Under the pieces are notes generated by a model, which made no database searches, was not told where the DNA came from, and saw only the letters and a program-made list of their open reading frames with translations. From NCBI GenBank assembly GCA_049700215.1, contig JBNAVT010000043.1:1-11897 (forward strand): 11,897 nt of DNA, given 5' to 3'. This document shows, in pieces, positions 1,288 to 11,897 of this stretch. A program made the position numbers and the translations under genes. Each line of letters begins with the position of its first letter. The first letter of the stretch is position 1. This DNA is from Thermoproteota archaeon. GTDB lineage: Archaea > Thermoproteota > EX4484-205 > JAAOZP01.

Positions 1288-3165
1288 CTAGTACGGAAGT
1301 ATCCACATGTTTTTCAAAATCAACCCAATAGCTACGCTGATCGTTATAATTAAACCAACCCCCAGGGAAATCCCGGCGACTATCGCATTCCTGTAGCGGG
1401 ACCAGAAGTCTCGCCCTATCCTTTCTTCAACAAGTTTTCCAATAATCATCCCTACCAGTAAGGAGACAGAGTATGGCAATGGTTGCGCTGCGCCTGCAGA
1501 CAGAGCTATGATAGGAATGCCTAGGCGGGTCGCCTCGGAGACAGCGAAAACAATAAGGCCAATCGTGAAGAAGCCGGCTACGAGAAGCGGGTTGAGCAGG
1601 CCAGCTGCACCCCCTGAGGCGAACAGGCGGAGCCATCGAGCCTGAATCGGCCAGTAAATATTCGTACCCGGGTAAACGTTAGACGGCATCGGCGCGATGT
1701 TCCAGAAGGCAGACACGTAGATGAAGCCAACCAGCCAGACGATTGGGAAAACCAGGAAGTACGTCTTATACATTGTCTTTGAAGGCGTGTCGCAAAGTTG
1801 GCCGATCTTCATGAAGTAGCAAAAATCAGCTCCGAAAGTCGTGATGATCAGTGGGCCGAACCAGATTCTGGTATCGTTAAAGCCTGTTGCACTCATGTAG
1901 GCGAGGAACACTCCCTCCTTAAGATATGGAACATCCTGCTTAAAGCCGACGACCCCATAGGACCTTGTGCCCACTAGAGTGTATATGAATGACCACCCGG
2001 AGGAAAGAGCGAGAAGCAGCAGAAGAAACGTTACTGGGAGACCAGGAATCAGGTAGGCAAAAAGAGCAACAGACCCAACGGTTGAGCCGAAGAACAGTGC
2101 TAGAAGGAACCATAATGGGTAATTGTCAACACCCTTGCCGACCCTTATTCTTAAAAGACTCTTTAGAGAGTTGATGAAAATTTGAGGATTCCTCAGTATG
2201 GGGAGAACGCCCGCAGCAATTGCTAAGCCTATTATTGGGCTTACCCAAAGCTCAAAAAGCGAATGCTGGTATATTGTTGAAAGAGAGGAGCCTGGAGACC
2301 AATAGCTGAACAGACCCTTAAGGGCTGGCAACGGTGATTCGGAGCTTGTGAGAAAACACCCGAAGAAGTAGAAAGCCATTCCGCTTGCAAACAAGGTTAG
2401 GACGACGTTTACTGGAAGTATGAAGCCTGTTACGATGCTTATGATATCAGTCGCTACCCCGAACGAAGCTCCAGGTAGAAACGGCTCTATTCTGCTAGTA
2501 AGGTCTATCCAGGGAATTGGAATCGTCGTATAACCCAGTACCAGCGCCGGGAAATAGACTAGAAGCCCGTAGATGAAGCCTAGCGCCGCAGACAGTGTGA
2601 AAACCCTGGTTCTCCTAGGATCCACTCTCTCTGAAAGCGTTAGAATAGCGTCAGCCCCGACTTGAGCAGTTGGAAACGGCAGGTCCTCAACCTCGATGAA
2701 CATGCTTTTCGCAATGAACGCCATCGACATGTCTGCAAGCTTCCAAAGGAGCCCTCCAACTAGAGATAGGAGAATAGGGGTGGCGAAGCTTGGCGAGAAA
2801 AACGTTCTATAGATGAACAGGTTTGTCTCTGGAGCTGGAGCCCACCAATCCGGTATGTTTAACCCGTAGGCGTAGGGACTGGTTCTAAACCAGGTGGCAT
2901 ATATCCACTGGATGCTTATAACCTCAAAGCAGATTTGATGCCCCATCATCCATATTAGGAATGCCTCTTGCCTGCTTAACGGGCATCCAGCCAGAAAACC
3001 GAGTTCAACGGCAAACAGTAGCAGAGTATACTGGATCCCGGAGCTAAGGTTACCGCCGCTGTAAAGCTGGTACCATATTGCCGCCGGCAAAAGAACCACT
3101 ACGCCGTAGAGTATCACTAGTAAGGATCTCCAGGTTAACCCTGAGACGCCTTTAACACTATTCAT
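1288..3165 (-). CDS. OPT (oligopeptide transporter)-superfamily polytopic membrane protein (~625 aa)
   Basis: Highly hydrophobic throughout. It has an OPT-like N-terminus (GLTWRSLLVIL), a 'PLSRQE' segment, an 'FIEVEDLPFPTAQ' motif and a C-terminal 'IVAGISLGVGL'. I moved the start from 3213 to the ATG at 3165 because AAGGAGG (3181-3175) lies 9 nt upstream and that ATG overlaps the upstream gene's stop (ATGAATAG). TAG at 1288-1290. Confidence 0.8.
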   Translation of the reverse strand: MNSVKGVSGLTWRSLLVILYGVVVLLPAAIWYQLYSGGNLSSGIQYTLLLFAVELGFLAGCPLSRQEAFLIWMMGHQICFEVISIQWIYATWFRTSPYAYGLNIPDWWAPAPETNLFIYRTFFSPSFATPILLSLVGGLLWKLADMSMAFIAKSMFIEVEDLPFPTAQVGADAILTLSERVDPRRTRVFTLSAALGFIYGLLVYFPALVLGYTTIPIPWIDLTSRIEPFLPGASFGVATDIISIVTGFILPVNVVLTLFASGMAFYFFGCFLTSSESPLPALKGLFSYWSPGSSLSTIYQHSLFELWVSPIIGLAIAAGVLPILRNPQIFINSLKSLLRIRVGKGVDNYPLWFLLALFFGSTVGSVALFAYLIPGLPVTFLLLLLALSSGWSFIYTLVGTRSYGVVGFKQDVPYLKEGVFLAYMSATGFNDTRIWFGPLIITTFGADFCYFMKIGQLCDTPSKTMYKTYFLVFPIVWLVGFIYVSAFWNIAPMPSNVYPGTNIYWPIQARWLRLFASGGAAGLLNPLLVAGFFTIGLIVFAVSEATRLGIPIIALSAGAAQPLPYSVSLLVGMIIGKLVEERIGRDFWSRYRNAIVAGISLGVGLIITISVAIGLILKNMWILPY

Positions 3166-6100
3166 GGTTCCCAGCCTCCTTAAATTTCCCACGCATATCG
3201 CGGGCTTTCTCAATTGCTTCCAGCTTGTCTTCTGCGGGAAGGGTCCTCCAAATAAGCAGTTGTTTGCGAAGACTGTCTACAAACCGGTATCCTGCTTTTT
3301 GCCACATGTACAGCGTGCCAGATTTTCTATTTAGACGGAGAGCGTATTTGAAATTATTTTCGCCAGCGTCTTTGCGAATCAGTATCTCAGCCCTCTGCGA
3401 GATCCCCATGTCGAAAGGAGGTAGAGTAGCGTCGACGATTATAATCTTCTCAACAGCCCCGTCTTCAACCCTTTTAGACAATGCTAGATTATCAGTTCTG
3501 AAGGCGCCGACTTCAGCTGTTGTGAAAGCATTGAAAAACTCGATTAAAAACATTATGATCCCATCGGTTTCCTCAGGCGAGGAGGTGAAGGGCAACGGTA
3601 TGTCCCAGACGTCACCCTTAGGCTTGGTTCTAAGCTTCCAAACTCTTTCAACTGAGGGCGTGACCAGCCTTGAAGCCTTCGTAACAGGGTACACGGAGGA
3701 TGCTATCGTGGTTAATATCGATATTGAGACTGTTAAAATTACGATCGTTGAGGAGAAGTTTGGGTAAAAGTCTTTCGGCATCAATTGAAACATGTAGAGG
3801 AGATTGGTTCCCACAAGCCCAACAACATACCCTAGGACCGCCGCCACAACGGAGTATACTAGCGTTTCCGATAGAAAGAGGCCGGCAACATGCAGGGGCG
3901 AGAGCCCCAGTGAGCTGAAAATACCGATTTCTCTAACACGCTCATACACGTTGGCCAGCATCGCATCCAAGATTGCCAGAGCGGCAATGATAATCGGGAA
4001 AGCAAGATGCTCAATTCCCCTGAGGGAGAACCATGCTTGCTGCTGGAAATTGGCCCTCTGACCCTCGGCGCTAGCATAAACGACAAACGGAAGCCTGTTC
4101 GACAGGCTTTGAGCGAACTCGAAAACCCTGCTTTGATTACGGAATTTAGCGACTATCTGCATCGGAGGATAGCCCAATCTTTCCGCCAGCGAGTATGGAA
4201 CTATAAGTATAGATTGAGCAGGAATATGCTGGATGCCGCCTGCCCACTGGACCCCCCAGTTGATTGGCGTCACCTCATGTAGGTTTAAATCCACCAGGCT
4301 GTTGAGAACGGAAGAGTCGAAGATTCCGACGATAGTCAGATTGGCATTGCCGACGTAAATTACGTCGCCTATTCTCCAGCCACACGCATCTGCAGCCTCT
4401 CTCGGTATTATAGCCGTGTATAAACCGAGTTTTCCGGAGCAATCCGGAAGAGTAATGCCCTGTTCGAAGATAGGGTCTTCCGGCACAACCGCCAGCAAAG
4501 CCGAGAACACGTATTGTGTTTCGGTCATGTTATCCATGACCCTGGAAACCTTTATCTTCGTTCCGGGAACCTGTCCTCCCAATACTGACACGTAGCCGCT
4601 GGAAGTATAGATCCAGCTTCTTGGACATATTTCAGCCTCATCCCCGATCTCCACTTTAAGAAGGCCACTCAGATAGGATGGCAGATACTTGAATTCACTT
4701 ATCAGGATTCCGTCATAGTAGGTTTTCCCAGGTTTCGGAATTGTTCTGACTATTGATATCAGGTATATGGATGTTAACGAAATAAGGGAGAACACTATCA
4801 ACGTGATTGTTACAAGTGTAAGAGTAGTCCGAAGCCTTCTCTTCCTCATGTTAGATATGCCCATTGAAAAAGCTATTAGAACCGCACCGAACCGGCTTAT
4901 CTCGGCGAAATGTTTTCCGATGACCTCCTCTCTAAACGCCCTGATAAAGCTCGATATCCTACCCCACAGTATTCCTATGATGGGGGTGACGAAAACTAGG
5001 ATTGCTATGCCAACCAGCATTATATAGATGTTTGTCGCTAAGTGGAAACCCGGGTGGAACCAGTAGAGCAAAAACGTAAAAAGCGCGAAGACTCCGCATG
5101 CATACAATATTTTCCGCAGACCGCTCCTAGGCGAGAACATGAGTTCAACCAAGAGTATTGAAAACGGAACCAAAAGTATGAAAAAGAACAGGGTTGATGA
5201 AATTATCTCGAAAATTAGACCCCTTGTGAACGTGTAAGCGTTTATCTCGCTCTGCCAGGCAGCGTAAGTAGCGTAGACTACTCGAGAATAGTTAAACCTG
5301 GCTTCTGCCGAGAAACATTTTGAAGCCTCGCTCAACAGATTGCCCGCATCGTTTGAAAACTCTAGAGCAGGAGCGCTCGTAGCTAGGTAGCTCGAAGCCA
5401 AGTCAAGCCTGTACTTGTTCAAGAGATGGAAATCCTTAACCAGTCTTAAAGGCGTGGCTAAGATCTTTAATGTCTCACCCTGTTTAACAGAGAATCCTCG
5501 GCCCTCAGGGATCTCCTCAGTAATGTTTTTCAAAACTCCCTGGGGGAAAGGTATACCTGGGCTGTAAACTATAACCTCGATAGGCACGTCTTCAGGGATA
5601 AATATCATCGTTATGTCCTCGCCCTCGATGAAGCTGTCGCGAACATAGCCATATGATGTAGGCGGAGTATGGCCCCGCAAATCTAGAACAGAAATGCTCC
5701 CGAGCAGGTTCACAGGCGGAATAAGGTTGAATAAGACTATTGAGCCGCATGGGAAGACTGGAAAATAGCGGGGTGCGTCCGGAGTACCGATGCGCCCACT
5801 ATCAACCTGGAAAGAAATAGGGTACACGTCGGATCTCTGCTGCCAAAGCTCCGGGGCATATGTAATGCTTCCATTCTCATTGAAGACGAATGCCTCAACC
5901 ACAACTTGGGGAACCGCGACCTCAGCGACACCCACACCCAGCTGCTGCGCACCCGTGTAGGTTGTCTCCGAAGGCAGCCCGTGGACAACAAAAACGCCGT
6001 TCTCATCCGCCCTACATAGCGAGTAGAAATGTGGGGAATACCCGCCTTCCATATAAGAGAGACGGATTGAAACCAGCGCGTGAGGCACCCCCTCAAACCA

Positions 6101-7744
6101 TCCCTTTGCATAATTGTACGTAACAATCCTCCCAGTCAAAGTAACGAATCCTCCCGCGTTTGGCTGTAAAGCATACCTCGTTGGCCCAATACCCTTGCTC
6201 CCGAAGCCAGGACCATTTATCAGGCTTGAAGCCAAGGCCGCAGCAAACCTAACCTGTTTCTTAATGTTCTCGAACCTTCTCGGAGAGCCGAGACTATTCT
6301 CGTAAGTGTCTGAAGGAGTGGAGCAGAGGGTTCTGAAAGAGTTTGCGGTAGCTATTGTTATGCCGACTCCTCCGGCTACAACATAAGGTTCATGGTCGAA
6401 GGCCAGGTTAGCCGGCAAGTATACTCTCCACTCTCTCACGCGTAAACCGTCTTCAACATTTATATTAAGCCCCAGGTCCTGGAGGATGCTCTTCACCTCG
6501 GACTGCGACCCGAATAGTCTGTCACGGAGCCACGTATACCTTGGGAGAGAGGCCTCGAAATAATAGTTGTACCCGCAGAAGAACACTCCTAGATCGCTCA
6601 CGTCGGATGCCAGATCGAAGTTTATCCAGATGCTGATCCTCTTGCTTGTTTCCTCGAAGTGCCGCTCCACAAACTCTCTAGAGCCCTTTAACCCTCCGTA
6701 GTGAGAGCCTATAGCAAGAAACCATATGGTTCTCTCCGGAGGATTATCCTTAAAGCAAGAAGCCAGCTCCATGATCATTGCGATGCCTATGGCCTCGTCT
6801 GCTCCAGGAGCCGCTCCAACTATATACGATTGAGAATCATAGTATGCGCTTAAAACCACAACCTCTTCTCTCCTGCCGGGTATTACGCCAAGAATATTCC
6901 GAGCCGGCTTTTCCTCCCAGGAAGCATTCAGCCTGATTCTTACCTTAACCTCACTGGTTGCCAGAAGGCTAATAAGATTCTCCGCATCCCTCTTTGAAAC
7001 CACGAGCCTGGGAATATTCAACGGGACGCCTAGCTGGTTAACTCCTCCCCTGAAAGCCAACCGGGGTGCGTCAGGAAGCCTAGTGTTTAAAGAACTTTGA
7101 ACATTATTATAGATTTCGGGTTCGACGAATATCACTGCTTTAGCACCAAACATCACCGTGTGAACCCAGTTCCCACTGTTTTCATAGTCCACCAGCACTA
7201 TCGTATCATTAAGGTTCTTTCCATCAAGCTCCGGCAGAGATGCCTTCCCCACGTAGACTAGTCTTCCCTCAACACCCTCCGGGGGAGTCCTGCCCGGGTT
7301 TAGGCCCATCGGGTACATTGTTGAAACATTGCCAAGGGTAAACTGGAGGGGGGATATGACTTGGACGCTTGCCTTGTGAATTACTGGAACGAGGACCGTG
7401 AAGTTTTCAAAGTAACCGTAAGGACCAGGTTTAAGACCATTTTTCACGAAGTTTTCATAAATATACTTCGCCGCAGCTTCATAGCCAGGGTAGCCGGGAG
7501 ACCTGCACCCTAGGCTAGATAGATACTTCACATGCTCGCGAATCGCATCGGTGTTTATGGTGTTCGCAATCTCGATGTTTTTGAAGGCCCGCAGCCCGTC
7601 TCCCCTAGCTTGAGGAGCAATGTTTAAAACAATCGTTGAGCACAGCAGGAGTATAATGAGCAGTGGAGTAAGCCTTCCTCCCAACACTGCTCGAAGCAGG
7701 GTCTTTCCCACGAGAGACTCCACCCTAATCATTCTCATGTCCAA
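3158..7744 (-). CDS. Large fusion protein: signal peptide + PA/M28-peptidase-fold domain (degenerate active site) + beta-rich domains + 3 TM + MacB/FtsX-family ABC permease + C-terminal soluble domain (up to 1528 aa)
   Basis: Signal-peptide-like LLIILLLCSTIVLNIAPQARG. M28 scaffold motifs: RSPGYPG, NILGVIPG, VVLSAYYDS, PGADEAIG, RTIWFL, GLKGS, INFD, DHEPY. PA insert: GRLVYVG...TIVLVD...GAKAVIF. MacB N-terminal motif: NMRKRRLRTTLTLVTI. FtsX coupling motif: VYERVREIGIFSSLGLSP. The start codon is uncertain (TTG 7744, ATG 7738 or 7732, GTG 7723 or 7711). TAG at 3158-3160. Confidence 0.88.
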   Translation of the reverse strand: MDMRMIRVESLVGKTLLRAVLGGRLTPLLIILLLCSTIVLNIAPQARGDGLRAFKNIEIANTINTDAIREHVKYLSSLGCRSPGYPGYEAAAKYIYENFVKNGLKPGPYGYFENFTVLVPVIHKASVQVISPLQFTLGNVSTMYPMGLNPGRTPPEGVEGRLVYVGKASLPELDGKNLNDTIVLVDYENSGNWVHTVMFGAKAVIFVEPEIYNNVQSSLNTRLPDAPRLAFRGGVNQLGVPLNIPRLVVSKRDAENLISLLATSEVKVRIRLNASWEEKPARNILGVIPGRREEVVVLSAYYDSQSYIVGAAPGADEAIGIAMIMELASCFKDNPPERTIWFLAIGSHYGGLKGSREFVERHFEETSKRISIWINFDLASDVSDLGVFFCGYNYYFEASLPRYTWLRDRLFGSQSEVKSILQDLGLNINVEDGLRVREWRVYLPANLAFDHEPYVVAGGVGITIATANSFRTLCSTPSDTYENSLGSPRRFENIKKQVRFAAALASSLINGPGFGSKGIGPTRYALQPNAGGFVTLTGRIVTYNYAKGWFEGVPHALVSIRLSYMEGGYSPHFYSLCRADENGVFVVHGLPSETTYTGAQQLGVGVAEVAVPQVVVEAFVFNENGSITYAPELWQQRSDVYPISFQVDSGRIGTPDAPRYFPVFPCGSIVLFNLIPPVNLLGSISVLDLRGHTPPTSYGYVRDSFIEGEDITMIFIPEDVPIEVIVYSPGIPFPQGVLKNITEEIPEGRGFSVKQGETLKILATPLRLVKDFHLLNKYRLDLASSYLATSAPALEFSNDAGNLLSEASKCFSAEARFNYSRVVYATYAAWQSEINAYTFTRGLIFEIISSTLFFFILLVPFSILLVELMFSPRSGLRKILYACGVFALFTFLLYWFHPGFHLATNIYIMLVGIAILVFVTPIIGILWGRISSFIRAFREEVIGKHFAEISRFGAVLIAFSMGISNMRKRRLRTTLTLVTITLIVFSLISLTSIYLISIVRTIPKPGKTYYDGILISEFKYLPSYLSGLLKVEIGDEAEICPRSWIYTSSGYVSVLGGQVPGTKIKVSRVMDNMTETQYVFSALLAVVPEDPIFEQGITLPDCSGKLGLYTAIIPREAADACGWRIGDVIYVGNANLTIVGIFDSSVLNSLVDLNLHEVTPINWGVQWAGGIQHIPAQSILIVPYSLAERLGYPPMQIVAKFRNQSRVFEFAQSLSNRLPFVVYASAEGQRANFQQQAWFSLRGIEHLAFPIIIAALAILDAMLANVYERVREIGIFSSLGLSPLHVAGLFLSETLVYSVVAAVLGYVVGLVGTNLLYMFQLMPKDFYPNFSSTIVILTVSISILTTIASSVYPVTKASRLVTPSVERVWKLRTKPKGDVWDIPLPFTSSPEETDGIIMFLIEFFNAFTTAEVGAFRTDNLALSKRVEDGAVEKIIIVDATLPPFDMGISQRAEILIRKDAGENNFKYALRLNRKSGTLYMWQKAGYRFVDSLRKQLLIWRTLPAEDKLEAIEKARDMRGKFKEAGNHE
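3175..3181 (-). promoter_or_regulatory. Shine-Dalgarno site (AAGGAGG) for the OPT gene, embedded in the 3' end of the FtsX fusion gene
   Basis: The minus strand reads AAGGAGG-ctgggaacc-ATG. Confidence 0.7.
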
Positions 7745-7760
7745 TCCCGTTTAAAAACGT

Positions 7761-7776
7761 AAATAGAAAAAAGAGG
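7761..7776 (-). terminator. Possible archaeal oligo-T terminator after the 694-aa gene
   Basis: The minus strand reads CCTCTTTTTTCTATTT, starting 6 nt after the TGA, and a second T-run (GTTTTTAAA) follows. Confidence 0.35.
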
Positions 7777-7782
7777 ATGGTG

Positions 7783-9867
7783 TCAACCTGGAACAGTAGG
7801 AGCCCATTCTATCCCTGCCTGTGCAACCGGCAGGAATATGTCGGTCACTATCGATACTATGAATGAGCCTAGGAATACCCCTATCGCCAACGGAACACCA
7901 TGCTCTTCATAGAGCTTTGAGCCACCTATCCTGAACGTTAGAAACTTCAAAACCCATGCGACTAGAAGATAACCCCAAAGCCAGTGTGCAGGCTGAGATA
8001 AGCCTATTACGAGACCTACTGGGTTCAACGGGAACCTTGCGAACGCAACCCTGGCCCAGAGAAGAACCCCGGCGAGGAAGAAGCCGGCAGCCCAGTTAGC
8101 CAGCTGAAGCCCAAGCAGGTCCTTGTTCCAGTTAAACCAGGAACAACCTTGAGCCTGGTTGAAAGCAGCGTTAAAGATCGCCTCTTGACCCCACCATGCT
8201 GGGCTGACCCACTGGCCGTACAGGGTGCCGCCATGCCCGAAGCCCCTGTCGAACCCAACCATGTAAGTGAAGACCAGCCACAGGGGGAGGCATATGAGGA
8301 CAGCGAGAACCATTGCGACAATGGTTGAAACCGCCATAGCCCTATTATGGGTTTTAGTTAAAGTTGCCAATTTGAAGGCTTCAAGCTGAGCGCTCTGAGG
8401 CGTGCCCGCACCACCCCAGTACCACGTGTAGTGCCCAGTCACCACGTAGCCCATGTTCCAAGCCGTGTAGGCACCTGCACCGTGTGCGGCTTGAGAAGCC
8501 GCTGAGGCCTGAGCCCCGACAAGCGAGTAGAGCCCTGCTTGAGACAGTAAAGTAGCCAAAACCTCCTGGGACTCCCATGGAGTATCGCCCTTCGCTATGC
8601 TTTCTCCACGGATCCTTGATGTTGCAACATACTGCAGACACGTGTATACTACGATTATCCCTGCAGCCCAGACTGGAACATAGACGGCGACCATGAGCAC
8701 TATGAGCAGCACTGTTGAAACTATGAAGGCCAGCCAGAGAGTTCGGTATGAGAACGGCTCGTTAGACTCGTCCAACACCTTTTTTCCAGACGCGTTCTTA
8801 AGTGTGGACACCAGGTATTTCCTCGCGTAGACGAGAAGCCACAGGCCTAGACCAATCATGGCACCCCATCCGATCATCCCGCCGGAAACAGGTGCGATAG
8901 CGCATGACGCCATGTTATGCCATGCCCCGCCGGAGCTTCCCCAGGGTGCTTGCAGCGCCGCGTATCCAGCCCAAGCAGATATAGCCGGAATAATGTCAGC
9001 GAATATAAACCAGGCGACTACGGCGGTGAAGAGGACATCAAGCGGAGCGAGGTACCATAGGCTTAGCTGAGACGGTGAAACGCTGAAGAACCAGCTTGAA
9101 TTGGGGAGCGCGACCTCTAAGGCTTCAATATGGTAGGTCTGCCACAGATTCCATCCTCGCCCAGGTGCCAAGGCGTCTATTAGGTTCCCAAGCATCAGTA
9201 GAAAGCCCAAGAGTATGCCTATCAGTATCTTTTTCACTCGGGGCTTTGCGGTTACGCCTAGGCCTAAATTGATCAGCTCATTAGTAATGTTCAAATATGG
9301 GAACGGGAGTTTCTCGACGTCTATCCATAGTTTCCGAAGTATCATCCCCATTGAAACCATGAAGACAACCAGGACTAGTGTGAAGACGATCCAGTAGCCT
9401 AACGCGGGTGCCCAAGCTGCCCACGGGACAGAGGTTCCCCCGGTGAAAGCAGCTAAAGCCGCCGTCGTGTCTTTTACTCCGAAGAGGGGGCTCATCTCCA
9501 GGGCTCCCGGTATTGTAGACACCCAGTATCCCATGTACCACCATTGTTTTTCCCACGCTGTGTTGAAAATCGATATTGAAAACGGTACTGCCACAGACCA
9601 GGCGAAGCCAAGGCTAACCGTTACCATGGCGAAGACGATAGCGTATTCGTCTGCCCTAAGCCTGAATGAACCGAGAAAGTAGCCAAGTATTGCCAGCACA
9701 AACAGGACTAGGAATGCTCCAGCGTTCATGCCCCAGAGGGTTAGATTCACGTTGGTCCAGTCTATTGAAAGCTGTATCAGCATCATCACTATGGAAACGA
9801 CTAGCCCAACTATGAAACCTCTAGACTTCAGAAATTTGCCGAGGAGGAATTCTTTCTCCTCACTCAT
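7783..9867 (-). CDS. OPT-superfamily-like polytopic membrane protein, DUF6785/DUF6784-like (694 aa)
   Basis: Many TM segments. Motifs VPWAAWAP, LRKLWIDVEKLPFP, SRIRGE, RFPLNPVG and AWVLKFLTFRIGGSKLY...PLAIGVFLG match my recollection of DUF6785/DUF6784 proteins (not search-verified). It shares the E-x-LPFP motif with the OPT gene. ATG at 9867, TGA at 7783-7785. Confidence 0.75.
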   Translation of the reverse strand: MSEEKEFLLGKFLKSRGFIVGLVVSIVMMLIQLSIDWTNVNLTLWGMNAGAFLVLFVLAILGYFLGSFRLRADEYAIVFAMVTVSLGFAWSVAVPFSISIFNTAWEKQWWYMGYWVSTIPGALEMSPLFGVKDTTAALAAFTGGTSVPWAAWAPALGYWIVFTLVLVVFMVSMGMILRKLWIDVEKLPFPYLNITNELINLGLGVTAKPRVKKILIGILLGFLLMLGNLIDALAPGRGWNLWQTYHIEALEVALPNSSWFFSVSPSQLSLWYLAPLDVLFTAVVAWFIFADIIPAISAWAGYAALQAPWGSSGGAWHNMASCAIAPVSGGMIGWGAMIGLGLWLLVYARKYLVSTLKNASGKKVLDESNEPFSYRTLWLAFIVSTVLLIVLMVAVYVPVWAAGIIVVYTCLQYVATSRIRGESIAKGDTPWESQEVLATLLSQAGLYSLVGAQASAASQAAHGAGAYTAWNMGYVVTGHYTWYWGGAGTPQSAQLEAFKLATLTKTHNRAMAVSTIVAMVLAVLICLPLWLVFTYMVGFDRGFGHGGTLYGQWVSPAWWGQEAIFNAAFNQAQGCSWFNWNKDLLGLQLANWAAGFFLAGVLLWARVAFARFPLNPVGLVIGLSQPAHWLWGYLLVAWVLKFLTFRIGGSKLYEEHGVPLAIGVFLGSFIVSIVTDIFLPVAQAGIEWAPTVPG

Positions 9868-9968: not shown

Positions 9969-11615
9969 CTACTCCTTTCTAACGAGAAGCAGCACCGATA
10001 CTAAAAACTCTAGGATTGAAGTGGCCGTTAAACCGGCCACGCCTAAGGCAAAAGAAGCAGTTAGAAACAGAATTATGAAGTAAACCAGAGTCGGGATCAT
10101 CGCAATTAGGTAGCTGAGTATCCATGGGAGAATATAGTAGTAGAATTTTAGATACAGGTTTCCAGACGGGATGGTTCGCCCAAACATTCTTGAGAGGAGA
10201 ATGGTTTCAAATATTATTGAAGCCACGACAGAGAACGTGAAAACACCTCCGAAAAGCGTGAACACATGCACGATGCCCGGTGCCCTCAGCATAGTTATCG
10301 TCAACAGTACGAGGAGTGAAGCCAAATACACGGTTGACGATAGGATTGTCTTAGCTAGGATCAGTGTCCTCCTTACTAAAGGCAGGCTCCCAACGTAAGA
10401 ATAAGCCATGCTCTCAGTGTTTAAAAGCAATGGGGGGAGTATCAACACCATAAGTAGAGAAAACATGAACATGGGGAGAAGAATGGGAGGCATGGACTCA
10501 ACGGGAGCACTACCCATATCTGGGTATAGGGAGGTGAGGCTGATAATTACGATTTGTATAACCGGCATCATAAGTACGCTGAAATAGGAGGGGGATCTTG
10601 AAGCAATCCTGAGATCCTTCTTAAGAACCCCGAGCCACGGCGGCCCAGGATTTATAGAAACCTCCCTAACCTCAACCCTGCTGCCTGCGGCAACGCTTCC
10701 AAAGCCTATTCCGACAACCCTCTTGACAAGCCATTTGAAAGAGTATGCTGCCAGGGTGAGGTAGAGGATGGAGGAGCCTACTGATAAGGCAGCAACCATA
10801 GGGTCATCTGTCCTGAGGAAGGTGGCGAATGAGGCTAGGAAACCCAGTGAAAAAGGGTATATCAACGTAAGCAGGTATGAGAGGCTTTGAGTAAGGGTTT
10901 TCATCAGGTTAACCATCTGTATTGCGAAACCCGTAACCGCGTACATGAGAAACATTGGAATAATCCATACCAGCATGTAGAAAAGCCTCGTGAGTGTTTT
11001 CAACGATGATCCTCCACCCCCCTTAACCACTTTAGAATAGAAGGAGAGAGCAAGTAATACGGCTATTGCCAGTGCGAAAACCTCCGTTACTACAACACTC
11101 AGAAGGACGGTTAAGGCCCCTGTGACAGAGCCGTATGAGACACCGTATGCTACCGGGATTATTAGGACCGCCGCTATTAACGGAATGTCGAAGATCCTAA
11201 TGAAACACGTCAGGAGGATTTTTGAAACATCCCTGCTTGAAAGCGGGAGGGGGGTTAGGAACTCTGTAACCCTGGAGGAGACGAAGGATGTTGCAACCTG
11301 CAGCCCCATGAAGACAGTCATGAAAAGGACTATGCTGAGCATTGATGAGACACCGCACGCGGCAGCCAGCCCCTTATCCATTTGGAGCAGAACGCCTGAG
11401 AAGAAGGTGAAAACTCCGATGGCGCCGATGAAAACGGCAAAAATAACTTTGTTAAGCATAGAATTCCACTCTGCACTCCTGACGAGCTGCAGGATGCTTT
11501 TCTCAGCGCCGCCTGCTTGAGGCAGAGTCCCACCTAAGCGGAGTGAGAAGAACGATTGGAAAACTACCTCCCTGTAAACTTTTTTCGACAGCCGCCAGAG
11601 TTCAGAAGTATTCAT
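9969..11615 (-). CDS. ABC-2-type transporter permease with two TMD halves (548 aa)
   Basis: Hydrophobic throughout. 'VLKKDLRIASRSP' starts the second half, and the coupling-type motif is repeated (FLTPLPLSSRDV / YVGSLPLVRRTL). It starts 5 nt after the ATPase stop, with GGAGG (11630-11626) upstream. Confidence 0.8.
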   Translation of the reverse strand: MNTSELWRLSKKVYREVVFQSFFSLRLGGTLPQAGGAEKSILQLVRSAEWNSMLNKVIFAVFIGAIGVFTFFSGVLLQMDKGLAAACGVSSMLSIVLFMTVFMGLQVATSFVSSRVTEFLTPLPLSSRDVSKILLTCFIRIFDIPLIAAVLIIPVAYGVSYGSVTGALTVLLSVVVTEVFALAIAVLLALSFYSKVVKGGGGSSLKTLTRLFYMLVWIIPMFLMYAVTGFAIQMVNLMKTLTQSLSYLLTLIYPFSLGFLASFATFLRTDDPMVAALSVGSSILYLTLAAYSFKWLVKRVVGIGFGSVAAGSRVEVREVSINPGPPWLGVLKKDLRIASRSPSYFSVLMMPVIQIVIISLTSLYPDMGSAPVESMPPILLPMFMFSLLMVLILPPLLLNTESMAYSYVGSLPLVRRTLILAKTILSSTVYLASLLVLLTITMLRAPGIVHVFTLFGGVFTFSVVASIIFETILLSRMFGRTIPSGNLYLKFYYYILPWILSYLIAMIPTLVYFIILFLTASFALGVAGLTATSILEFLVSVLLLVRKE

Positions 11616-11620
11616 TAACC

Positions 11621-11897
11621 CTATGCCTCCAGGGCTTTAACTATCTCCTGCACCCCAGCCTCCTGCTCAGTCACCTTCAAGAATATTTCCTCCAAGGAGC
11701 CTTCCACGCTCTTAACCAGTTTTCGAAGACCGTCGACTGTGCCCTCGCCAACCATCCTCCCCCTGTTTATTATACCTACTCTCGTGCAGAGTCTTTCAGC
11801 AACCTCCATGATGTGTGTTGAAAAAATAACTGCACCACCCTTGCTCACGTGGAAGGTCAACAGTTCCTTGAGTATTTTAGACGAGAACGCGTCAAGC
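11621..11897 (-). CDS. ABC transporter ATP-binding protein, ABC-2/CcmA-like (5'-truncated by the window edge)
   Basis: The frame is open to the window edge and reads LDAFSSKILKELLTFHVSKGGAVIFSTHIMEVAERLCTRVGIINRGRMVGEGT...SLEEIFLKVT. This covers the end of the D-loop, the H-switch (STH) and the LEEIFL tail typical of ABC-2 ATPases. Confidence 0.92.
   Translation of the reverse strand, partial: LDAFSSKILKELLTFHVSKGGAVIFSTHIMEVAERLCTRVGIINRGRMVGEGTVDGLRKLVKSVEGSLEEIFLKVTEQEAGVQEIVKALEA

Follow-up and report, generated by a model that had tools for sequence, protein, structure and literature searches.

Proteins of the OPT/YSL family drive transport with the proton gradient, and those known to us act alone, on peptides or metal chelates. 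MacB-type proteins are, to our knowledge, known only as ATP-driven machines, and in MacB relatives a cytoplasmic loop docks the ATPase. Catalytically inactive relatives of M28 peptidases, such as nicastrin and the transferrin receptor, serve as receptors, and in TRAP, TTT and Sus-like loci, which we cite as an analogy only, a protein that captures substrate outside the cell hands it to a secondary transporter. The window analyzed here, a stretch of 11,897 nucleotides from a Thermoproteota archaeon, carries three co-oriented genes, all on the minus strand and encoding 694 + 1526 + 625 = 2,845 amino acids in total (Table 1), which form a conserved, previously undescribed membrane module. In the literature searched, we found no description of a module pairing the second gene product (the "giant") with an OPT-like protein, in line with a sequence-only reading of this DNA, which knew of no characterized complex combining these families.

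Table 1. Features of the three-gene locus, numbered from the first nucleotide of the window.
Feature	Position	Strand	Remarks
TATA-like box TTTAAATA	9908-9901	(-)	33 nt upstream of gene-1 ATG 9867; candidate archaeal promoter
Gene 1	7783-9867	(-)	ORF, 694 aa; stop TGA 7785-7783
Gene 1-giant spacer, 38 nt	7745-7782	(-)	T6 run 7772-7767, T5 run, TTTTTAAA 7757-7750
Gene 2 (giant) ORF	3158-7744	(-)	TTG start 7744; first ATG 7738 gives 1,526 aa (3158-7738)
Giant residues ~60-485, PA-bearing M28-like ectodomain without catalytic residues	6284-7561	(-)	Pfam M28, PDB 2ek8 match
Giant residues ~486-815, second ectodomain part	5294-6283	(-)	Ends in long helix entering membrane
Giant residues ~816-948, three long TM helices, conserved HPGF motif	4895-5293	(-)	AF2 model, conservation
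Giant residues ~949-1359, MacB-type unit	3662-4894	(-)	Pfam FtsX, Foldseek, VIA
Giant residues 1360-1526, cytoplasmic tail	3161-3661	(-)	Small alpha+beta domain, then two long helices
Gene 3	1288-3165	(-)	625 aa from likely ATG 3165; ORF extends 1288-3213

Reading of the ORFs bears out the gene coordinates, the 38-nt gap, the 8-nt overlap and the total of about 2850 amino acids reported previously. The overlap joins the giant stop codon to the gene-3 ATG (ATGAATAG, 3158-3165), a GGAGG sits 8-9 nt upstream of that ATG, and the giant and gene 3 are probably a translationally coupled pair. The distance from the gene-1 stop codon to the giant is 38 nt if translation begins at TTG 7744, 44 nt for ATG 7738 and 50 nt for ATG 7732, which is where the ESM Atlas record of the giant begins; the T runs and TTTTTAAA in this spacer are candidates for a terminator or an internal promoter. 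Among the sequencing runs listed, none from RNA contains this DNA. The TATA-like box had been described as strong. It is present at the stated position and TTTAAATA is a single copy in the whole window, but the motif is not significant (0.46 copies expected; at least one copy in 69 of 200 shuffles), and it is a candidate promoter by virtue only of its position.

Folds of the three proteins

Gene 3 scores below the Pfam cut-off for OPT (22.3 against 25.8 bits, E 6.3e-5) even though the match spans its whole length. Its AF2 model (pLDDT 92.4, pTM 0.92), when searched with Foldseek, has HvYS1 (7wst, 7wsr) as sole significant matches (E 2.1e-10, TM 0.66-0.68), and VIA aligns the model with HvYS1 at Z 25.8 and an rmsd of 3.6 A over 536 of 600 residues, the next chain reaching Z 4.9. 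Gene 3 has neighbours in ESM Atlas (score 0.96) in which 31% and 15% of members carry PF03169 (OPT). On the evidence of this model, gene 3 is an OPT-fold permease. Gene 1, a polytopic membrane protein of 694 residues, matches DUF6785 (118.7 bits, cut-off 25) and DUF6784 (56.3 bits, cut-off 26.4) in the Pfam scan, with no match to Pfam OPT. The gene-3 and DUF6785 families nevertheless align in hhalign over 594 columns (probability 99.9, E 1.6e-36) and have an E-x-LPFP motif in common; because gene 1 is thus a full-length homologue of gene 3, it would be expected to adopt an OPT fold. The earlier description of both flanking genes as OPT-like therefore holds for the gene-3 fold and for the homology of gene 1, but by family gene 1 is a DUF6785/DUF6784 protein and gene 3 is sub-threshold in Pfam OPT.

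The giant, in which Pfam detects Peptidase_M28 (54.3 bits, residues 283-483) and FtsX (50.7 bits, residues 1251-1359), begins with a signal or anchor helix followed by an outward-facing region of about 770 residues. The aminopeptidase 2ek8 matches this ectodomain (E 4.3e-11), its Glu-Glu pair aligning with His346-Tyr347 of the giant and its His with Tyr299. None of 77 giants has Glu at either position of the M28 catalytic pair, and the His ligand and bridging Asp at other M28 positions occur in only 30 and 24 of the 77, respectively. Asp301 (77/77), His346 (67/77) and Asp375 (60/77) are retained, which suggests a remodelled binding pocket. The ectodomain is a catalytically dead pseudo-peptidase. 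Its second part has no Pfam family match and an uninformative best ESM Atlas score of 0.79. One paralogue of the giant shows a weak, sub-cut-off match to Pfam Nicastrin (E 0.0021), and a sister FtsX protein of 1,792 residues in the same genome has a GH2-like ectodomain.

In the AF2 model of the C-terminal half, the three long helices that precede the MacB-type unit lie at model residues 3-53, 59-80 and 90-126; as a second FtsX repeat they were rejected on sequence, since hhalign sees no resemblance between them and the FtsX unit (probability 0.2). The MacB-type unit itself consists, in order, of an amphipathic helix, a TM helix, a MacB-like extracytoplasmic core of about 240 residues and three FtsX TM helices. 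Foldseek matches it to MacB, LolC/E, HrtB, YtrF, YbbP and BceB (E down to 1.7e-13), and VIA gives Z 10-14 across model residues 131-549. The fusion of an M28 pseudo-peptidase to FtsX proposed from sequence is thus supported by the dead PA/M28 ectodomain and by the structural matches of the MacB/FtsX unit. In a family alignment of 13 members, the cytoplasmic loop between the FtsX TM helices is invariant at E1266, R1267, G1278, L1279 and P1281, and invariant columns mark the cytoplasmic tail as the most conserved part of the giant. The tail profile finds 1,270 representative proteins at E <= 0.001 and 783 at E <= 1e-10, the domain being C-terminal in 150 of the 150 matches listed. LysM (PF01476) occurs in 24 of the 120 relatives listed, those being 2,335-2,428 residues long; the three with a source name are all from Poribacteria.

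Fold searches place KA1 domains closest to the tail (5iri at Z 9.1, with an rmsd of 2.7 A across 99 residues), with a middling score, and its assignment as a nucleotide-binding domain was rejected since the fold is KA1-like and not ATP-binding. KA1 domains are regulatory membrane binders. A conserved, family-specific tail of this fold, together with BceB-type proteins among the fold matches, would fit a sensor in which the ectodomain detects a ligand and the FtsX unit and tail signal inward to the permeases or to gene expression, the same logic as the sensing by flux in BceAB-type systems. We regard this as very improbable: besides the middling KA1 score, neither the trios of this genome nor the archaeal neighbour scan described below shows a conserved kinase, response regulator or transcription factor next to the module, HTH proteins occur there only sporadically, and for a sensor, five to a dozen paralogues would be an unusually large number in a 2-Mb genome.

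Pairing, distribution and gene neighbourhoods

The trio in the window is one of five paralogous copies in this 2.1-Mb genome (contigs C43, C3, C4, C6 and C38). We surveyed 66 loci from other genomes with a full-length giant, 57 archaeal and 9 bacterial, of which 46 archaeal and 5 bacterial (Armatimonadota) loci are flanked on either side by 2.5 kb or more. An OPT-like gene lies within 1.5 kb of the giant in 43 of the 46 archaeal and all 5 bacterial well-flanked loci; it is downstream on the same strand in 51 loci, with a gap of at most 30 nt in 46 of these. DUF6785 is present in the flank of the giant in 45/46 archaeal but 0/5 bacterial well-flanked loci. Among 61 related genomes, which are non-independent samples, 27 carry the giant, 24 the OPT-like protein and 28 DUF6785, and all 24 with the OPT-like protein also carry giants. 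A profile of the C-terminal half of the giant gives up to 12 matches per genome, the weaker ones being other long FtsX proteins. Moreover, neither partner is found in 11 of 20 DUF6785-centred regions. The core unit is therefore a near-obligate pair of giant and gene 3, with DUF6785 as a frequent but movable companion. The co-occurrence of the genes across genomes is far beyond chance, although DUF6785 is often solo and is absent from the bacterial versions. The similar clusters mentioned earlier from uncultured archaea and bacteria do exist, under generic names only.

The trios of this genome neighbour genes for AXE1, DUF2961, GH38, Asparaginase_2, BNR_2, a CBM_4_9 protein and GFO/IDH/MocA. 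Across 37 non-redundant archaeal loci, 67 of 126 neighbours within 2.2 kb match a family at E <= 1e-12 and 59 do not. Twelve of the 67, spread over 12 loci, are glycoside hydrolases or lyases (GH10 x2, GH57, GH51-C, GH30, GH130, GH4, GH127 x2, GH1, heparinase II/III and GH129), an enrichment to be read as qualitative; others are 8 URO-D-like, 3 GFO/IDH/MocA and 3 xylose-isomerase-like proteins, PfkB, UxuA and MR_MLE. Solo DUF6785 genes have as neighbours GH38, GH4, GH39, GH20, GH35/42, apiosidase-like and galactokinase/GalT genes, as well as fucose isomerase, GFO/IDH/MocA and xylose-isomerase-like genes. These neighbourhoods of glycoside hydrolases and sugar-metabolism genes fit the glycan or glycopeptide ligand suggested previously, and the LysM-bearing relatives and the GH2-like ectodomain of the sister FtsX protein point the same way.

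Our preferred reading, a tentative one, is that hot-spring archaea use the module to import oligosaccharides or glycoconjugates, with protons driving transport and a receptor assisting it. The dead-peptidase ectodomain would be a membrane-tethered receptor capturing an extracellular oligosaccharide or glycoconjugate freed by nearby glycoside hydrolases, and the OPT-fold proteins, presumably in physical contact with it, would move the substrate across the membrane on the proton gradient. The FtsX unit would serve as an anchor for the receptor, whose movement it may transmit to the permease, and each paralogue might serve a different substrate, as in polysaccharide-utilization-system loci. Counting against sugar import, the OPT-family substrates of which we are aware are peptides and metal chelates, not sugars.

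The M28/PA scaffold might instead keep a pocket that binds peptides without cleaving them, passing oligopeptides, muropeptides or N-glycopeptides to the OPT-fold importers. Peptides are among known OPT-family substrates, the receptor domain derives from a peptidase, and one of the trios in this genome has Asparaginase_2 and GH38 as neighbours. In addition, the gene for the anhydro-MurNAc kinase AnmK is found immediately upstream in one Armatimonadota locus, a pair of M16 peptidase genes precedes another, some relatives bear LysM, and the GH20, GH130, GH129 and fucosidase neighbours are kinds used on N-glycans. Peptide scavenging nevertheless seems unlikely, given that the 126 archaeal neighbours include no match at E <= 1e-12 to families of peptidases or of amino-acid catabolism, that many act on plant-type glycans (GH10, GH127, GH51, GH30), and that the zinc ligands of the M28 pocket are themselves variable across giants.

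The search for an ATPase

None of the 57 archaeal or 9 bacterial loci has an ABC ATPase gene within 1 kb of the giant, and no nucleotide-binding domain is fused to it. This counts against the importer reading, MacB-type proteins being known only as ATP-driven machines, and the earlier proposal that the FtsX unit drives or gates a conformational change finds no support, there being no visible motor. The invariant cytoplasmic loop, given ATPase docking in MacB relatives, also fits an ATPase acting in trans. The giant could be imagined as a MacB-type mechanotransducer, powered by an unlinked, shared LolD/FtsE-like ATPase and acting on something outside the cell, for instance an enzyme at the surface, part of the envelope or a substrate being extracted, with the OPT genes functionally linked but no hybrid machine formed. 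Apart from the MacB fold and the loop, this would agree with the presence in the same genome of nine long FtsX proteins without a nearby ATPase, as against three short ones with an ATPase 0-16 bp away. An orphan ATPase of 247 residues (G000:C1:21833-22576; best NCBIfam LolD, E 2.3e-66), encoded among housekeeping genes, is the only LolD/DevA/YbbA/FtsE-type ATPase of the genome without an adjacent permease, and an ABC ATPase is found 4-6 kb downstream of the giant on the same strand in 5/9 Armatimonadota loci.

We nonetheless consider such a mechanotransducer quite unlikely. The orphan ATPase also has orthologues, sharing at least 68% identity, in G029, G040 and G054, genomes where no giant was found, and it resembles the Armatimonadota ATPase (60% identity) no more than it does a paralogue from its own genome (62%). 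The Armatimonadota ATPase is directly preceded by a short FtsX gene in three of the five loci and has a PqqD-like neighbour in one, so it probably belongs to a separate exporter. Nor would a mechanotransducer account for the OPT-fold gene being near-obligately paired with the giant and overlapping it. The hybrid importer or sensor originally envisaged survives in its folds, its dead ectodomain and the co-occurrence of its genes, but without an obligate trio or a visible motor.

Comparison with known systems

Gene 3 resembles OPT/YSL proteins (PF03169; barley Yellow Stripe 1, 7wsr, 7wst) in fold over its whole length, at 13-15% identity; in contrast to them, the OPT subfamily of the module is near-obligately paired with an FtsX giant and found in a sugar-catabolism context. 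With the type VII ABC systems (MacB, LolCDE, FtsEX, HrtBA, YtrEF, YbbAP, BceAB) the giant shares FtsX helices and a MacB-like core, and, as with YbbP and BceB, its chain is long and includes additional TM helices and a sizeable domain on the outside. It differs from them in having no fused or adjacent nucleotide-binding domain, a pseudo-peptidase ectodomain of about 770 residues in front, a family-specific KA1-like tail, three additional helices whose sequence does not make them a second FtsX repeat, and an OPT-fold protein, rather than an adaptor or hydrolase, as partner. The M28 scaffold with a PA domain, lost catalytic residues and a position outside the membrane recall nicastrin and the transferrin receptor, but the giant is prokaryotic and fused to a multi-pass FtsX membrane unit. 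By analogy, the proposed logic of the module, with many paralogues beside different glycoside hydrolase genes, would be that of TRAP, TTT and Sus-like loci, although there is no homology to DctP/DctQM, TctC or SusC/SusD and the receptor of the module is membrane-integral rather than soluble or lipid-anchored.

Layout and junctions of the three-gene module

All large ORFs of the window (contig C43) lie on its minus strand; this 11,897-bp contig belongs to a 2.09-Mb, 85-contig assembly (G000) with a completeness of 94.6%. The module under study consists of gene 1 (a DUF6785/DUF6784 protein), gene 2 (hereafter the giant, a PA/M28-like ectodomain joined to a MacB/FtsX unit and a C-terminal tail), and gene 3 (an OPT-like permease). 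Reading of the sequence upholds the junctions described in the sequence-only reading, with a 38-nt spacer between gene 1 and the giant and an 8-nt overlap, ATGAATAG, between the giant and gene 3; GGAGG is located just 5' of this overlap.

Features of the window, and of other contigs of the same assembly, discussed in the text (L, locus; C, contig of G000)
Feature	Position	Strand	Remarks
ABC ATPase, DrrA/NodI-like	11621-11896	minus	C-terminal fragment at contig end
12TM_1 (PF09847) membrane protein/permease	9969-11615	minus	548 aa
Gene 1	7783-9867	minus	694 aa
Giant (gene 2)	3158-7744 from TTG	minus	1,526 aa counted from ATG 7738
Gene 3	ATG 3165 to stop 1288-1290	minus	625 aa
Unannotated gene	167-1201	minus	344 aa; directly 3' of gene 3
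LolD/DevA/YbbA/FtsE-type ABC ATPase, orphan	L136:6833-7576 = G000:C1:21833-22576	plus	247 aa; without adjoining permease
Seventh DUF6785/6784 gene	L140:11256-13394 = G000:C15:35256-37394	plus	712 aa; standing alone
Sister FtsX protein, GH2-like	L037:5338-10716 = G000:C16:31338-36716	minus	1,792 aa
Ornithine cyclodeaminase/mu-crystallin homologue	L033:3777-5801 (G000:C3)	minus	674 aa; two-stretch Pfam match plus LAGLIDADG_3

The TATA-like element TTTAAATA sits 33 nt 5' of the gene-1 ATG, and is not significant when taken alone because 69 of 200 shuffled sequences contain one by chance. Moreover, given the T-runs and the TTTTTAAA element within the spacer, gene 1 may be transcribed separately from the giant/gene 3 pair. 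Among the sequencing runs listed, the DNA runs containing the window sequence are hot-spring metagenomes, and no RNA run contains it. We also considered the upstream ABC-2 ATPase and 12TM_1 genes as part of the module, and rejected them on finding that none of the other four module copies in G000 has this pair, which is conserved only in records ~90% identical to the window. The 344-aa protein encoded downstream has no match in Pfam, NCBIfam or the PDB; visual inspection shows NEL and SETG motifs that we take to be reminiscent of clan GH-A glycosidases.

Ectodomain, membrane unit and tail of the giant

Residues 283-483 of the giant score 54.3 bits against the Pfam Peptidase_M28 profile (cut-off 21.3), and residues ~60-485 align with the PA-domain-bearing M28 aminopeptidase 2ek8 (E 4.3e-11). 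M28 peptidases employ a catalytic Glu, an adjoining zinc-ligand Glu, and His and Asp zinc ligands, and we mapped these positions in the giants through the 2ek8 alignment. In the window giant, His346-Tyr347 replace the Glu-Glu pair and Tyr299 replaces the first zinc-binding His. Glu is present at neither Glu position in any of 77 distinct giants, the M28 His ligand is retained in 30 of them, and the bridging Asp in 24; conservation is instead seen for Asp301 (77/77), His346 (67/77) and Asp375 (60/77). Judged from these alignments, the ectodomain is a genuine pseudo-peptidase that keeps a conserved remnant of the pocket, in line with the M28-pseudopeptidase assignment made earlier, given that the M28 profile is matched and the catalytic Glu is missing throughout. 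Residues 486-815 have no Pfam match, and the best ESM Atlas score for ectodomain residues 485-815 is only 0.79, an uninformative value.

A model of the membrane part (residues 815-1526, 70 sequences, pLDDT 82.2) runs from three long helices through an amphipathic helix plus one TM helix to a mixed alpha/beta outer domain, which is followed by three TM helices; it ends in a compact alpha+beta domain that carries two long terminal helices. Residues 131-549 of the model resemble MacB, LolC/E, HrtB, YtrF, YbbP, BceB and FtsX (Foldseek to E 1.7e-13), with VIA Z scores of 10-14 against MacB-type proteins. Together with a Pfam FtsX score of 50.7 bits (cut-off 25.5), these fold matches bear out the earlier FtsX assignment. 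The outer domain matches the periplasmic domains of MacB, LolE and YknZ (VIA Z 11-12, rmsd 3.0-5.2 Å), and the model predicts a MacB-like extracytoplasmic core domain between the TM helices of the giant. The Pfam MacB-like core profile scores 13.7 bits in the window giant, below its cut-off of 27, and 37.9 and 33.1 bits, above the cut-off, in the C6 and C38 paralogues. The idea that the giant is a duplicated FtsX protein was rejected at the sequence level only: the hhalign probability for residues 815-949 versus 1239-1364 is 0.2, and the first three helices show no recognisable FtsX repeat.

The tail (residues 1360-1526) is the best-conserved stretch of the giant, and it is not a P-loop domain. 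Its closest VIA folds are KA1 domains, with middling Z scores of 9.1, 8.8 and 8.4 (rmsd 2.5-3.1 Å over 91-99 residues), and START/Aha1/TBP-like folds also reach Z 8 for the tail as modelled within residues 815-1526. At E <= 0.001 the tail profile has matches in 1,270 representative proteins, and in all 150 of the listed matches it is located at the C-terminal end, which makes it a signature of the giant family; grouped at 50% identity, the proteins with this domain form at least 783 clusters.

OPT-fold proteins and their pairing with the giant

Gene 1 matches two Pfam profiles in N-to-C order, DUF6785 (PF20581; residues 18-538, 118.7 bits, cut-off 25) and DUF6784 (PF20580; residues 593-677, 56.3 bits, cut-off 26.4). 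Gene 3 scores 22.3 bits against Pfam OPT (PF03169; E 6.3e-5), below the gathering cut-off of 25.8, in a match spanning protein residues 26-626 and profile positions 2-619 of 623; none of its four G000 paralogues matches Pfam OPT at E <= 0.01. Comparison of 14 gene-3 relatives with 29 DUF6785 proteins in hhalign gives a match over 594 columns (probability 99.9, E 1.6e-36). This full-length match, and an E-x-LPFP motif common to both alignments, show that gene 1 and gene 3 belong to paralogous families. Searching the PDB sequences with either alignment profile returned nothing below E 0.5. The AlphaFold2 model of gene 3 (64 sequences, pLDDT 92.4, pTM 0.92) has only two PDB matches in Foldseek at E <= 0.001, both of them structures of the OPT-family transporter barley Yellow Stripe 1 (HvYS1; E 2.1e-10, TM 0.66-0.68). 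VIA gives Z scores of 25.8 and 25.5 for HvYS1 (rmsd 3.6 Å over 536 residues) and 4.9 for the next chain, and ESM Atlas neighbours likewise point to OPT. Gene 3 is therefore modelled with the OPT/YSL three-dimensional fold. The HvYS1 and ESM Atlas matches, combined with the hhalign homology, mean that "OPT-like", as both genes had been called from sequence, is right at the fold and superfamily level, although neither qualifies for membership of Pfam OPT. The seventh, solitary DUF6785/6784 gene of G000 lies 5.5 kb from a bona fide M28 peptidase (423 aa, Pfam E 6.5e-34).

The five copies of the module in G000 differ in arrangement. On C43, C3 and C4, gene 1 is followed by the giant and then by gene 3; the C6 copy has an extra DUF6785 gene and a dehydrogenase gene, and the OPT-like gene of the C38 copy diverges from the giant and DUF6785 genes. 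When 20 DUF6785-centred regions of relatives are compared, all three genes are present, in varied orders, in nine, and the other 11 have neither giant nor OPT-like gene. Scanning one genome per species for the giant gave 529 matching stretches, the best 80 of which represent 78 loci. By record title these belong to Bathyarchaeia, 'Brockarchaeota', Thermoproteales/Thermofilaceae, other Thermoproteota and bacteria, the latter contributing 11 loci (nine Armatimonadota/Chthonomonadia, one 'bacterium' and one 'uncultured bacterium', with HR16 presumed to be Armatimonadota). Outside archaea, the module reaches into at least two phyla of bacteria. A full-length giant is present in 66 loci, and neighbours were counted where at least 2.5 kb of flank was available on both sides. 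An OPT-like gene lies within 1.5 kb of the giant in 43 of 46 archaeal and all five bacterial loci meeting this requirement, and DUF6785 is found in the flank of 45 of the archaeal loci. In 51 loci the OPT-like gene is 3' of the giant on the same strand, with a gap of <= 30 nt in 46 of them; the DUF6785 gene can be upstream, downstream or divergent relative to the pair. Among 61 related genomes, which as kin do not provide independent counts, 27 have the giant, 24 the OPT-like subfamily and 28 DUF6785. Each of the 24 genomes with the OPT-like subfamily also has giants, and the giant matches in the remaining three genomes (70-95% complete) are only open frames of 677-896 aa.

The giant and the OPT-like permease are thus an obligate pair, and the DUF6785 protein is a frequent archaeal companion that is also able to work alone. 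Co-occurrence of all three families, proposed as a check in the sequence-only reading, holds for the giant/OPT-like pair across archaea and bacteria but for DUF6785 only in archaea; the latter gene is movable, often solo, and found in none of the five bacterial loci. Physical contact between the module proteins is something we infer only from this gene pairing; a complex prediction for gene 3 with part of the giant (residues 1239-1526) scored 0.00, which makes no call either way.

Energy source, substrate and place among transporters

Pfam detects no ABC_tran domain in the giant, and no ABC ATPase is encoded within 1 kb of it in any of 57 archaeal or nine bacterial loci. For each of the five G000 giants, the closest ATPase is 3.9-46 kb away or absent from the contig, and none lies within 1.5 kb of these giants or of four other long FtsX proteins; the three short FtsX genes of G000 each lie 0-16 bp from an ABC ATPase gene. 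The orphan ATPase on C1 is a candidate trans partner. It has a housekeeping neighbourhood, being flanked by phosphoribosyltransferase and RLI/ABCE1 genes with thermosome and triose-phosphate isomerase genes near, and it was rejected as a specific partner since orthologues are also present in three genomes in which no giant is detected. We consider it rather improbable that the giant is an ATP-driven mechanotransducer using such an ATPase in trans. In Armatimonadota, an ATPase is encoded 4-6 kb 3' of the pair in five of nine loci, directly preceded by a short FtsX gene in three. The gene order in L108, L114, L120 and L124 is giant, OPT-like, a ~300-aa protein with no family match, short FtsX, and a 246-257-aa ABC ATPase, with an additional PqqD-like ORF in L108; this downstream ATPase probably belongs to a separate exporter. 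In another locus, L084, AnmK is found immediately 5' of the giant in place of this shared arrangement.

The five G000 copies are surrounded by genes for acetyl-xylan esterase, DUF2961, GH38, Asparaginase_2, a xylose-isomerase-like protein, BNR_2, a CBM_4_9 protein, GFO/IDH/MocA and isomerase-like proteins, and solo DUF6785 genes by GH38, GH4, GH39, GH20, GH35/42, apiosidase-like, galactokinase/GalT and fucose isomerase genes. Glycoside hydrolases or lyases constitute 12 of 67 family-matched neighbours of 37 non-redundant archaeal modules as a raw count, and sugar dehydrogenases, isomerases and kinases are also found there. LysM (PF01476) is added to M28 and FtsX in 24 of 120 listed relatives (P0073-P0126; 2,335-2,428 aa), three of which carry source names, all Candidatus Poribacteria. 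These neighbourhoods and the LysM and GH2-like relatives point to uptake of glycans or glycoconjugates, with one substrate per paralogue. Our preferred reading, held tentatively, is that the module may import oligosaccharides or glycoconjugates through OPT-fold proteins assisted by a receptor. Import of peptides or glycopeptides seems less likely, with glycopeptides as a serious alternative; none of the 67 family-matched neighbours of the 37 archaeal modules belongs to a peptidase family. That the module serves as a sensor is very improbable.

Several other genes were observed in G000 and its relatives. The GH2-like sister FtsX protein combines its N-terminal ectodomain with a MacB-like core, FtsX and most of the giant's C-terminal tail, with neither ATPase nor OPT-like gene nearby; another sister is surrounded by fucosidase, deacetylase and GHL10 genes. 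FtsX proteins of ~1,000 aa that have no adjacent cognate ATPase are encoded on C4, C50 and C8, three in all. URO-D-like genes recur beside DUF6785 genes or trios (8 of 126 immediate neighbours of archaeal modules, plus further cases), as MTTB-like and B12-binding radical-SAM genes do occasionally. The ornithine cyclodeaminase/mu-crystallin gene on C3 looks intein-bearing from its domain matches.

In public records the giant goes by generic names ('FtsX-like permease family protein', 'M28 family peptidase', 'ABC transporter permease', 'hypothetical'), which agrees with the mention in the sequence-only reading of similarly annotated clusters with no assigned function. The description given there of the system as undescribed also stands, in that full-text searches, supplements aside, turned up no account of the module or of DUF6785/DUF6784. 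Searches for FtsX with M28 in archaea gave only one irrelevant paper; PMC10477458 contains none of the four terms looked up, and the transport passages of PMC12542729 are confined to ABC transporters and porters. The parts of the module belong to known superfamilies; within the reach of these searches, nobody has described their combination, the lack of an ATPase or the family-specific tail.

The five copies of ~8.6 kb account for ~2% of the G000 genome. Bathyarchaeia-type archaea are abundant carbon recyclers of sediments and hot springs, and to our knowledge their uptake of polymers is poorly known. Should the module prove to be an OPT-fold importer assisted by a receptor, the OPT superfamily would gain a wider range of substrates, and uncultured archaea a PUL-like marker of glycan use. 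FtsX/MacB units could then also prove functional without their own ATPase, with a bearing on how mechanotransmission is powered. A bolder and, in our estimate, doubtful extension is that the module represents a new class of hybrid transporter, in which an ATPase-less MacB/FtsX mechanotransmission unit is physically coupled to an OPT-fold secondary transporter. Coupling would occur via the family-specific KA1-like tail and extra helices of the giant, the permease's proton-driven cycle would either drive motion of the dead-peptidase ectodomain or be gated by it, and glycans captured by this ectodomain would be fed into the permease. If true, this would be the first FtsX-family machine powered by a proton gradient and not by ATP. 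Compared with Sus-like and TRAP uptake, such a hybrid would be an archaeal counterpart, but one made of unrelated parts.
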